From a virus (lineage: Duplodnaviria > Heunggongvirae > Uroviricota > Caudoviricetes), in IMG/VR virus record IMGVR_UViG_2541047850_000007, positions 1-10,146 of that record: DNA of 10,146 bases; one strand, 5' to 3'. Within the stretch, counting starts at the first letter, position 1. Every line of letters starts with the position of its first letter. Shown here piece by piece: positions 1 to 3,000 of this stretch. Position numbers: made by a program.

Positions 1-3000
1 ATGAGCAGGGCAATTCATAGACTTAGCGACACTCTTTTACGAAAATTAAGCGGATCACCAACCACAAAAAACACCTTTTTTAATGATGGTGGCAACCTTA
101 GCGTAAGGCATTCAACCAATGGCCTGTTAACCTGGTATTTCACTTACAGGGCCGGAACAGGCAGGAAGGTAGCCCCTGAACGTCTGAGGCTGGGAAATTA
201 TCCAGATTTGAGCCTGAAAGCAGCCAGGGAAAAAGCGTCGCAGTGTCGCGCCTGGCTTGCTGAGGGTAAAAATCCACGCCATGAGCTTAATCACACCGTA
301 CAGGAAGCGTTATCACCTGTTACGGTTAAGGAAGCGCTCACTTACTGGCTTGAATCGTACGCGAAGGAAAAGCGCACAGATTACGAATCTCTGAAAAGCC
401 GGATCAATACACACATAATCAGCCATATTGGTGCTATGCCGCTGGAAAAATGCGAGCTACGCCACTGGCTGACCTGTTTTGATCAGCTTGCTATGCGTAA
501 TCCGGTATCAGCAGGATTTTTGTTACAGGTATGCAAGCAGGCGCTTAAGTACTGCCGCAAACGACGCTACGCAATTACCAACGTTCTAGATGATATGGTT
601 GTAGGTGATGTTGGGAAAAAAGCAGAAATAAGCGAGCGCGTACTAACAAACAAGGAGCTTGGGGAATTACTACGCGCCCTGGATGAAAAAATTTACACAC
701 CGTACTACAGCGCCCTGATTCGCCTCCTGATTGTCTTCGGATGCCGTACCACTGAGCTAAGACGCTCTGAGGTCCAGGAATGGGATTTTAAAGAAATGCT
801 CTGGACTGTGCCGAAAGAACACAGCAAAACGAAGGTAGCAATATTCAGGCCAATACCGGAAGCGATCTTGCCGTTCGTAACGAAGCTGGTGGAGCAGAAC
901 CGACACACGGGCTTATTACTCGGAGAACTGAAAGGGCAATCATCTGTATCAGAGTACGGAAGAACGGCACACAGACGCATTAATCAAGCCCCCTGGACGT
1001 TGCACGACATCCGGCACACGTTTACAACGATGCTGAACGATTTAGGCGTGGATCCTCATGTAGTGGAGCAGCTAACCGCGCACCAGTTGCCAGGAATGCA
1101 ACGAGTCTATAATCACTCCCGTTATCTCGATGCAAAACGTGACGCTCTTAATCTATGGGTTGAGCGTCTCGAGCTTCTCCAGAACAATGATGAAAAAATC
1201 GTTGTTATTACCCCGCGAATTTACTCCCAAAATTCTTGACAAATTACGGCTGTTTTTCTTGCGAAAAATGGCCCTCTAAAATAAATCGTCGAATATCGGC
1301 AAATATCGACGATTTATATGTGTCAAGTATTGAAAAAATTTGAAATGTCTTCTTCTTAGTTCTTATTCTCTGTTTCTTGATTGTTCCAACACCTGATGGT
1401 TTATCTATTTGTTTTTAATGAGGTAATTCAGGTGTCATGCCAAATAACGACATTTTTTGTTGCGTCGCTTAAAAACTCGTGACACGATTTTAAACACTAA
1501 CGAGCTTCTACGAACCTTAGCGAACAAAGCCTTTAGCATGGTTGTGTTTTTAATTTAAGAGGTGAAAAAGAATCTAAGTAATATCCGATCTCATATATCT
1601 ACAGCTAAGAGAAAAGTTTATATACGTAATTTTTATGTAGGTTTTTGTATGCGTGAAATAAATGAAGATCGCGTAATCCGCGAAAAAGAATGCAGAGAGC
1701 TAACAGGCGTCAGCCGTACTACACGCTACGAACTGGAGAAGAAAGGGGGCTTTCCGTCACGTCTTAATCTGGGCGGTCGTTCTGTAGGGTGGCTGCTGTC
1801 CGAGGTTATGGAATGGGTTAAAAGCCGGGATCGCATTAATTCAGGTAAGGCAGTGTAAAGGGGAGCATATGACACATAAAACAAAGGCGACCGGGGGCGG
1901 TCGCCAATGGGAAAACACTAAACATAAGCCCGAACATCATAGCGATTTGCTGGCTGGTGGGCAAATCCTGAGCGGTCCTGCAATTACAGGAACTACGGCA
2001 TTGTCGCGGTTAGGTTGTGCTCAACTTTTTTTCACCTCTATATCGCAAGCGCGCCGTAATAAATCGCCTTTATCGCTTCCGCAAAGATCCTTTTTCTCGA
2101 AGCATGATTTTAAGAGAAAGGCGACGACAATTAATAAAACCGCACAGAGTTTCCAATTTATAAATTTTGACATCTTTTACCCCTATGATTGTCGCCATCG
2201 TTCTTCATGTTATGACGTGATTAATGATTACTCGGATTCACTGGCCTTGCGCCGCTGGCGATATTCAACTTCTCGTTTTAATGCCGCAGTAACAAATTGC
2301 CCCGTACTTTCTCCAGGCATTTTTACCGCCTCAACATTGTTCATAACTTCATGCGGAACCCTTGCCGCAACGGTTTGTGATTTTGCGTTTACTGCTTTTG
2401 TCGCCATGTTGTGTACCCCTCATAAAAAACAAATGCAGTATGCAGGAAAAAAAATAAGTGTTCAACACTTGACGTGTTCAACACCTGAGTTTAAATTGGT
2501 GTTCAACACCTTGTTGGCGCAAGGTGCAGAAACGACGAAACCCGGCAGTGAGCTAACACTAACCGGGCTTCTAACCACCAACGATAGAAAGCGTATCGAG
2601 GTAGCTATGTTAAATCATACCACACACCCGCAAGGGCGGGATTCGCACAACCTGAATAAATACATCTGGCGTTTTATCGCCCTGAGCACGGCACAACCGC
2701 GCGTGATTACCATTGAGGCCACCAGCGAACAGGAAGCACGCCAGCAATCTCCGGCTGGCTGCGTGATGGTATTCGCCGCCCGTATTCGTCAAGGGGTGTG
2801 CCATGCCTGATATGTCAAATTACCAGTACCTGATTAATCCGCATTTTAACTGTGAGCATGATATTGCTAAAAAAGTTTATTCCGCTGCGGATGGGGCTAC
2901 TGACAATATATCAATGGGTATTGCGTCAATTGGTAGCCTGATGTGGTATGCGTCAGAAAATAAGGAATATGACGAAAAGGCCATGCGCATTGATATGGGT

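Follow-up and report, generated by a model that had tools for sequence, protein, structure and literature searches.

Does the small gene that lies opposite the replication operon of an Escherichia coli phage satellite encode a repressor and, if so, which part of the satellite's life cycle does it govern? The question is raised by a 10,146-nt stretch of DNA (IMG/VR virus record IMGVR_UViG_2541047850_000007, referred to throughout as the window), which is a complete phage-inducible chromosomal island (PICI) of the EcCICFT073 type. The original prediction, made before any database search, placed on its minus strand an unannotated gene for a 59-aa ribbon-helix-helix (RHH) protein and saw in the product the best candidate for the master repressor of the element, comparable to Stl of the Staphylococcus aureus pathogenicity islands (SaPIs) or to the immunity system of P4, and inactivated by a product of the helper phage. 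By its pattern of conservation the 59-codon open reading frame (ORF) is a real, conserved gene, and its product is most likely, judging from family and predicted fold, a small DNA-binding protein of the RHH type whose family is known by name. On balance, we lean towards the view that this protein would act as an operator-binding repressor of an internal early promoter, and that it would be bypassed rather than inactivated at induction. The finding is real, and the core interpretation is plausible and testable.

A small conserved gene and its family

2228-2407, minus strand: 59-aa gene of the YlcI/YnfO family (ATG...TAA ORF), RHH fold, candidate repressor
2416-2421, minus strand: Shine-Dalgarno (SD) sequence GAGGGG, read from the sequence, 8 nt before the ATG

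The ORF is present where it had been placed, and the strong SD sequence attributed to it was confirmed. The label 'unannotated', however, arose only from the 60-aa cut-off of the ORF track behind the original prediction, and it does not hold, since RefSeq already names the gene 'YlcI/YnfO family protein' in related islands. The 59-aa protein matches the NCBIfam model NF041551 (YlcI_YnfO_N) with 59.6 bits against a cutoff of 30, its residues 9-50 falling on profile positions 1-42 of 42, and it matches phrog_949 with an E-value of 1e-21. Homologues (74 at 90 % clustering; 81 clusters at 50 %) come from Enterobacterales only. Their alignment has 14 invariant columns, including M1-A2-T3, R16, H19 and G32-E33-S34, and the N-terminus MATKAVNAKS is nearly invariant. 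At the DNA level, when diverged loci were compared pairwise, 88 of 91 pairs showed more amino-acid identity in the minus frame than in the antisense one, and the variability of its three codon positions (35/22/48) has the order normal for coding sequence, an order that is inverted for the antisense frame.

The RHH-like pattern proposed at the outset stood in part. An N-terminal beta-strand, a helix, a G-x-S/T/N turn and a second helix are all found, and structure prediction returns a confident fold (as a monomer model), but a significant match to an RHH family model or to a solved structure was not found. The RHH/CopG models of Pfam gave no significant match to the window protein or to 41 aligned homologues; matches to CB_ParB_C, PSK_trans_fac and DUF7557 (E 0.03-0.15) were weak and at chance level, and DUF3950, the Pfam label carried by YlcI of strain K-12, matched neither the window protein nor any of the 41 homologues at E-values up to 10. 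A sequence profile search of the PDB with the 59-aa protein yielded nothing relevant, and a Foldseek search no match. Among 50,697 phage records, tblastn gave no match at an E-value of 1e-3, so no phage of that collection has the gene, and P4 is likewise without a YlcI-like gene.

The K-12 proteins YlcI (prophage DLP12) and YnfO (prophage Qin) are uncharacterized members of the same NCBIfam family. YlcI scores 37.6 bits, as against 59.6 bits for the window protein, and shares its beta-helix-turn-helix pattern; nonetheless, the two are only 22 % identical, and the K-12 gene adjoins the terminase small-subunit gene of a lambdoid prophage rather than a satellite early region and has no matching operator triplet. 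There, ylcI (6252-6446 of the DLP12 locus, L002) is divergent from nohD across a 390-bp spacer that contains inverted repeats of another kind, with 25-nt arms at 6754-6810.

A scan for loci containing the gene, limited to one genome per species, gave 35 loci, and the plan of the control region was compared in 30 of them. Conservation and synteny, which had been proposed as the check on the gene, favoured it: the arrangement is no product of chance, as the reading frame and the synteny return, together with the geometry of promoter and operators, in about 30 loci, which represent Edwardsiella, Pectobacterium, Kosakonia, Xenorhabdus, Serratia, Proteus, Klebsiella and E. coli. Most of the 35 have the integrase gene (int) and alpA, then a convergent ylcI-like gene, and then a divergent operon running from an icd-like gene to the primase gene. 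In EcCICFT073, which has been studied experimentally and has the gene order of the window, the counterpart of the RHH gene is C_RS30120, a gene that older annotations missed. A side observation concerns the start of the gene in the window. The first codons of the RHH gene, ATGGCGACAA on its own strand and TTGTCGCCAT on the other, lie at 2398-2407 and recur exactly 209 nt downstream, at 2189-2198, where a minus-strand ORF of 42 aa (2070-2198) begins; this repeat may be a recombination scar of cassette exchange.

Palindromes, promoters and the leader RNA

2458-2468: putative operator O1, GTGTTCAACAC, overlapping the candidate -35 of the leftward promoter
2474-2484: putative operator O2, GTGTTCAACAC, beginning at the last base of the rightward -35 hexamer and filling the spacer
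2499-2509: putative operator O3, GTGTTCAACAC, directly after the -10 and over the expected start site of the rightward promoter
2469-2497, plus strand: candidate rightward internal early promoter, TTGACG-17-TAAATT, from a consensus scan, facing the icd-like/primase operon
2437-2465, minus strand: candidate leftward promoter of the RHH gene, TTGAAC (2465-2460), a 17-nt spacer and CATACT (2442-2437)

The divergent position of the RHH gene opposite the replication operon, across palindromic repeats, was confirmed. The repeats are exact 11-bp copies that begin at 2458, 2474 and 2499; the window contains no further exact copy, and no operator copy near alpA or int. The rightward promoter appears to be of the sigma-70 type and, by position, would be the equivalent of the P4 promoter internal to eta.

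Much of this arrangement is shared by the relatives. On the plus strand, AGTAT or a one-base variant of it (such as ATTAT, AATAA or AGAAT) stands at an offset of 30-31 from the ATG in all 30 loci, forming a -10-like element that is TATACT-like on the RHH gene's own strand, and in most loci an operator copy abuts this element or is fused to it. The TTGA of the rightward promoter keeps a fixed 62-nt offset from the ATG of the ylcI-like gene in 27 of the 30, and nearly all related loci have a site at the position of O2, with a core that is specific to its class. Read outward from the ATG, the shared plan comprises the -10-like element, usually an operator, an A-rich stretch, TTGAC, the spacer operator, the -10, a further operator and a conserved leader. 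This plan also holds for EcCICFT073, where TTGACG-18-TATAGT occupies the promoter position.

Whether these palindromes belong to the RHH protein can be judged from how they vary. The outer GTG...CAC of the operators is nearly constant, as is Arg16 of the protein. The five central bases can be grouped by residues 12 and 14, which would be expected to point towards the DNA in an RHH ribbon, and give the classes listed here:

Residues 12/14 T/A: core TTCAA
Residues 12/14 S or A/K: core GGCCA
Residues 12/14 K/E: core GCTGA
Residues 12/14 R/D: core TC[CG]GA
Residues 12/14 K/Q: GAGTC-like cores
Residues 12/14 Q/K: C-rich core

The core of the palindrome varies with the predicted DNA-reading residues of the RHH protein, and not with AlpA, Icd, the primase or the repeats of the origin. 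In an Edwardsiella locus (L003), an RHH protein that is 98 % identical goes with the same operators, and AlpA, Int and primase are 24, 22 and 42 % identical, respectively. In EcCICFT073, Icd is near-identical, the RHH protein is ~54 % identical over its first 50 residues, and the operator is GTGGGCCACAC. The iterons of the origin differ between elements that share operators and do not track operator class. Because their sequence covaries with residues of the predicted beta-strand, the palindromes behave like operators of the RHH protein. Together with the threefold occurrence of the site in the window, this covariation speaks indirectly for an intertwined dimer that would bind repeated sites through its two-stranded sheet, as is typical of the RHH superfamily. 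The possibility that they are instead sites for Rep or the primase was rejected, as the iterons differ where operators are shared and, in EcCICFT073, bear no relation to the operators. One more operator class, TGTGATTCAG, is seen in locus L041 (NZ_CP022279), where an RHH variant of 101 aa with a C-terminal extension (1783-2088) has the same promoter geometry; on the opposite strand, PGAP annotates an Icd-like pseudogene that overlaps this variant.

A structured leader of the icd-like gene follows, taken as 2506-2597 of the plus strand:

2541-2597, plus strand: conserved leader RNA, with a hairpin at 2541-2567, single-stranded CUUCUAACCACCAAC, and a hairpin at 2583-2597 directly before the SD of the icd-like gene

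When 20 loci were folded together with RNAalifold (a minimum free energy fold was also computed), compensatory changes were found in 11 of 14 pairs, and the single strand following the hairpin at 2541-2567 is CUAACCAC-like and invariant. A 5' hairpin of the leader, with arms at 2502-2513 and 2520-2531, overlaps O3. The leader RNA matches neither C4 nor isrK; a match to the Rfam family SymR on the opposite strand, at 28.6 bits against a gathering threshold of 61, was treated as chance or structure mimicry. The leader RNA may add a second layer of control.

The antisense frame, the P4 scaffold and the island

1869-2810, plus strand: long eta-like ORF, 313 aa, with SD and ATG directly after the alpA stop, ending at the Icd-like stop
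1649-1858, plus strand: alpA, homologue of P4 vis (Pfam Phage_AlpA, E 2.4e-17), upstream activator gene that converges on the RHH gene; its start at 1649 is inferred from a RefSeq homologue
2607-2810, plus strand: nested Icd-like (P4 Kil-like) gene, 67 aa, NF033153 69.8 bits; annotated by RefSeq in relatives
3411-5243: D5-type primase-helicase
1-1239: integrase gene

The eta-like ORF passes antisense through the entire RHH gene, and then through the promoter, the operators and the leader, and it ends in a C-terminal Icd/Kil-like domain. From stop to stop, its frame measures 433 codons in EcCICFT073 and 300-414 in many other loci. Over the 200 nt that separate the RHH start from the Icd-like start, the in-phase frame is free of stops in 21 of 29 loci; summed over the 29, it holds 25 stops, compared with 144 and 176 in the other two frames. 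Within the RHH gene, the two opposed frames share wobble positions, and a T at the wobble position before a CAN codon, which would create an antisense stop, occurs at 2 of 114 positions where 20 % would be expected (p ~5e-9), both exceptions belonging to one locus outside the eta-like context. The antisense frame is selected to stay open. A natural control for this open-frame signal is provided by L005 and L006 (Enterobacteriaceae RIT693 and Cedecea neteri), whose YlcI-like gene is ~60-64 % identical and lies in other surroundings, which lack alpA, int and icd and have a single palindrome; its antisense frame contains stops. Other eta-like ORFs are found at 7752-9053 of L039 and 9289-10284 of L001, and pieces of such ORFs are annotated by PGAP as 'Icd-like' genes or pseudogenes, some of which overlap the YlcI gene.

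The likeness to P4 extends over the whole early region. The P4 genes vis, eta/kil and alpha are the counterparts of alpA, the long ORF and the primase gene of the window, and they stand in the same order; identity is 47 % between AlpA and Vis and 48 % between the primase and alpha. The P4 eta gene is an open frame of 218 codons, and its C-terminus (Kil) is matched by the same Icd-like model with 73 bits. In P4, a constitutive promoter lies inside eta, its transcript is terminated via the CI RNA and seqA, and Kil is a nested product; translation of eta from the upstream late promoter prevents that termination (PMC10111431). Whereas the CI RNA and its seqA target silence the transcript of the internal promoter in P4, no RNA of the CI type can be detected here. 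Rfam gave no hit to C4 or isrK in the whole window, and a sensitive search of 2400-2700 at E-values up to 10 gave none either; five related satellites were equally negative at the gathering threshold, and P4 as the positive control scored 74.9 and 60.8 bits. Unlike P4, the window has a protein gene and putative operators inside the eta-like ORF, on the opposite strand. The analogy with P4 immunity that was drawn at the outset is thus borne out in the shared vis-eta/kil-alpha layout but not in the CI and seqA RNAs. To judge from gene order and sequence, these satellites appear to keep the P4 scaffold, with a protein repressor cassette in place of the RNA immunity of P4.

As for the remainder of the island, the Icd-like gene is the first of the rightward operon and is followed by a 106-aa gene, the DUF4222 gene and the primase-helicase gene; after the primase come, in order, an iteron field, SSB, PerC, a lambda-E-like major capsid gene, a decoration gene and terS. 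The iteron field (5237-5490), directly after the primase gene, is dense, with ~11 copies of ACTGTTCACC in both orientations, and is presumably the island's replication origin; a match to the Rfam family MIR1508 at 5328-5417 is spurious and arises from its inverted repeats. The ORF of the PerC-family regulator gene (6074-6466, plus strand; E 1e-42) and the 3' end of SSB overlap in different frames, and PerC homologues of such islands have a reported effect on LEE expression (PMC11773190). A 137-aa protein encoded after the decoration gene (8690-9103, plus strand) is similar to phrog_1999 and less strongly, with an E-value of 7e-10 for phrog_53, to the C-terminal part of head maturation proteases; the syntenic gene of L001 encodes 128 aa, carries the RefSeq label of a helix-turn-helix regulator and has no detected similarity to the window protein. 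Islands near-identical to the window lie between cspD and clpS in other E. coli strains. The exact module is present in 486 of 5426 complete E. coli genomes and the wider region in 1431.

Regulation, rival readings and wider meaning

Taken together, the gene, its putative operators and the P4-like scaffold suggest the following course of events. One or more RHH dimers would insert a beta-ribbon into the 11-bp pseudo-palindromes GTG-N5-CAC. Binding at O2 and O3 would block the internal promoter and leave the icd/kil-like division inhibitor, DUF4222 and the primase-helicase off, and binding at O1, or in most relatives at the site abutting the gene's own -10, would limit synthesis of the RHH protein, which probably represses its own gene. 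The repressor would keep the replication module of the integrated satellite silent and define its immunity specificity, standing where P4 has the CI RNA. Induction would take the published route, in which the helper raises alpA transcription and AlpA activates its own promoter and the downstream genes. The transcript from the alpA promoter would enter the eta-like ORF, whose translation would protect it, and read-through would cross the convergent repressor gene and the operators into the replication operon, interfering with repressor synthesis. From the sequence we infer DNA binding, repression and autoregulation by the RHH protein, as well as its bypass by read-through.

Some results weigh against this reading of the RHH protein as an autoregulated repressor with its own operators. 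The covariation is clearer in a categorical test on residue 14 than in graded correlations: the mean operator distance is 0.92 for pairs of loci that share this residue and 3.68 for the others, with a permutation p of ~5e-5 that is uncorrected for phylogeny, and the graded correlations of operator distance are weak, both with distance in the beta-strand (Spearman 0.20, Mantel p 0.03) and with distance in the helices (0.20, p 0.04). Loci L013 and L017 share K12/S14 and differ in their operators, so the two-residue code is incomplete and other residues contribute. Moreover, the RHH gene adjoins its putative operators, and co-inheritance alone could yield part of the covariation. In the window, the leftward promoter is weak by consensus, with 8 of 12 matches and a score below the scan threshold, and the operator copy adjoining the gene's own -10 is missing. 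Lastly, the leader RNA could carry part or all of the immunity function instead.

Two alternatives survive about equally well, and we regard each as unlikely. According to the first, which is that of the original prediction, the RHH protein is an Stl-type master repressor that silences the whole island until a helper-phage protein binds and inactivates it, starting the cycle. The layout is in keeping with this, as the gene is divergent from the replication operon with operator-like sites between; the nearly invariant N-terminus could be an interaction surface or a degron, and the literature says that no repressor is known for these elements (PMC6092414). Nevertheless, cloned, arabinose-driven alpA alone brings about excision and replication of EcCICFT073 without a helper phage, and the effect of helper phages on that element is to turn on transcription of alpA (PMC6092414). 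EcCICFT073 shares both the gene and the operator layout with the window, so that the Stl-style trigger, in which a helper product would inactivate the repressor, is probably wrong. In addition, the RHH fold is unrelated to Stl. The absence of an operator near alpA or int in the window indicates that the RHH protein is not the switch that controls alpA or senses the helper. On this evidence the 'master repressor' would be no master switch for induction but, plausibly, an operator-type repressor that acts on the internal early promoter.

The second alternative, no better placed than the first, holds that the palindromes are sites of a different factor, whether AlpA, a host protein or something encoded by the rightward operon, and that the RHH protein has another task; it might control the variable downstream cargo gene alone, or act like its distant prophage relatives YlcI/YnfO, encoded next to terminase genes. 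It gains from K-12, in which ylcI is divergent from nohD (terS) without a similar operator array, and from the fact that covariation could reflect linkage. Against it, the operators follow the residues expected to read DNA in an RHH protein and do not follow AlpA, Int or primase (as in L003), Icd (as in EcCICFT073) or the iterons, and the downstream cargo is not conserved.

That cargo also bears on a third alternative, and the leftward unit downstream of the RHH gene contains the following features:

2021-2173, minus strand: small, hydrophobic, lipoprotein-like ORF of 50 aa between the RHH gene and the terminator; variable cargo
1876-1905, minus strand: intrinsic terminator closing the leftward unit, with an 8-bp stem (1905-1886) followed by TTTGTTTT

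Under this alternative, which we consider very improbable, the RHH protein is the antitoxin of a type II toxin-antitoxin pair whose toxin is encoded directly downstream on the minus strand. The role was rejected, since no conserved same-strand ORF follows the RHH gene in 22 loci and several loci have only ~230 nt between it and the convergent alpA; besides this, the downstream ORF of the window resembles a small lipoprotein and not a known toxin, and the operators sit on the promoter of the opposite operon. The ORF at 2021-2173 has an annotated homologue in NZ_CP123335, a hypothetical protein of 87 aa with a lipobox-like L-I-S-C. The content of this cargo slot varies by island, being, for instance, a basic 57-aa protein in EcCICFT073 and L001, and EcCICFT073 has a terminator in the corresponding place, after its own variable small gene. 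A downstream minus-strand terminator had been predicted for the RHH gene, and a strong one exists, but it is located 320 nt past the stop codon, with the ORF at 2021-2173 between. The last alternative, that the minus-strand ORF is a non-coding shadow of the eta-like ORF, draws on the plus-strand frame being open over the RHH gene in almost all loci and on shared wobble positions that let both frames look conserved, but it is excluded by the conservation pattern described above, and the ORF comes with an SD and an ATG of its own and with a confident predicted fold; members of its family also occur outside the eta-like context, where (as in L005) the antisense frame is closed.

Among known systems, the closest working analogue of the RHH protein is Mnt, which is encoded with Arc in the immI region of phage P22. 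Mnt is a small RHH repressor whose gene is divergent from the operon that it silences, whose operator overlaps the promoter and whose synthesis is autoregulated. It differs in having 82 aa, a tetramerization tail and a single 17-bp operator, in controlling an antirepressor rather than replication genes, and its gene is not known to lie within an antisense ORF; Mnt and the 59-aa protein are not known to be similar in sequence. CopG of plasmid pMV158 is an RHH repressor of the rep promoter that is co-transcribed with rep on a plasmid, and the Pfam RHH/CopG models miss the window protein. Stl of the SaPIs and Rpr of Gram-positive PICIs are likewise encoded divergently from the excision-replication operon of their satellites (PMC6092414), and a gene divergent from the replication operon with putative operators between is what is found here; however, Stl has a different fold and size and is lifted by the binding of a helper protein, whereas the E. 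coli element is induced by AlpA alone. Searches of the literature for a function of YlcI/YnfO, or for a repressor in E. coli PICIs, found name-only listings and no role assigned; one of them, in a survey from 2026, records 'YlcI/YnfO, prophage-associated protein' for satellites and gives no function. Control of divergent promoters by RHH repressors is already classical (Mnt, Arc, CopG), as is P4's eta/kil scaffold. As far as the literature search reached, the combination of the two, the specificity classes and the antisense nesting are new.

A broader proposal, which we put forward tentatively and hold to be possible rather than probable, is that the RHH genes and their operators are the missing immunity determinants of AlpA-type (EcCICFT073-like) satellites of Enterobacterales. 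In these, a protein repressor would have replaced the CI RNA, co-resident satellites would be heteroimmune by virtue of at least eight interchangeable classes of specificity, and the antisense strand, lying in a translated eta-like ORF, would be constrained mainly to stay open, so that one DNA would serve both as repressor gene and as the 'ribosome track' of anti-termination.

Phage-inducible islands of Gram-negative bacteria are common and move virulence and defence genes, and the published model of their regulation has an activator, AlpA, and no repressor. In the model element EcCICFT073, C_RS30120, with its textbook layout of putative operators, is now a testable candidate for keeping the replication genes and the cell-division-inhibitor gene off. 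The RHH locus provides a mechanistic link between these islands and P4 and hints at what immunity types may be based on, and its antisense nesting, with selection against stops, offers a clean natural case for the study of overlapping genes and of translation-dependent anti-termination.

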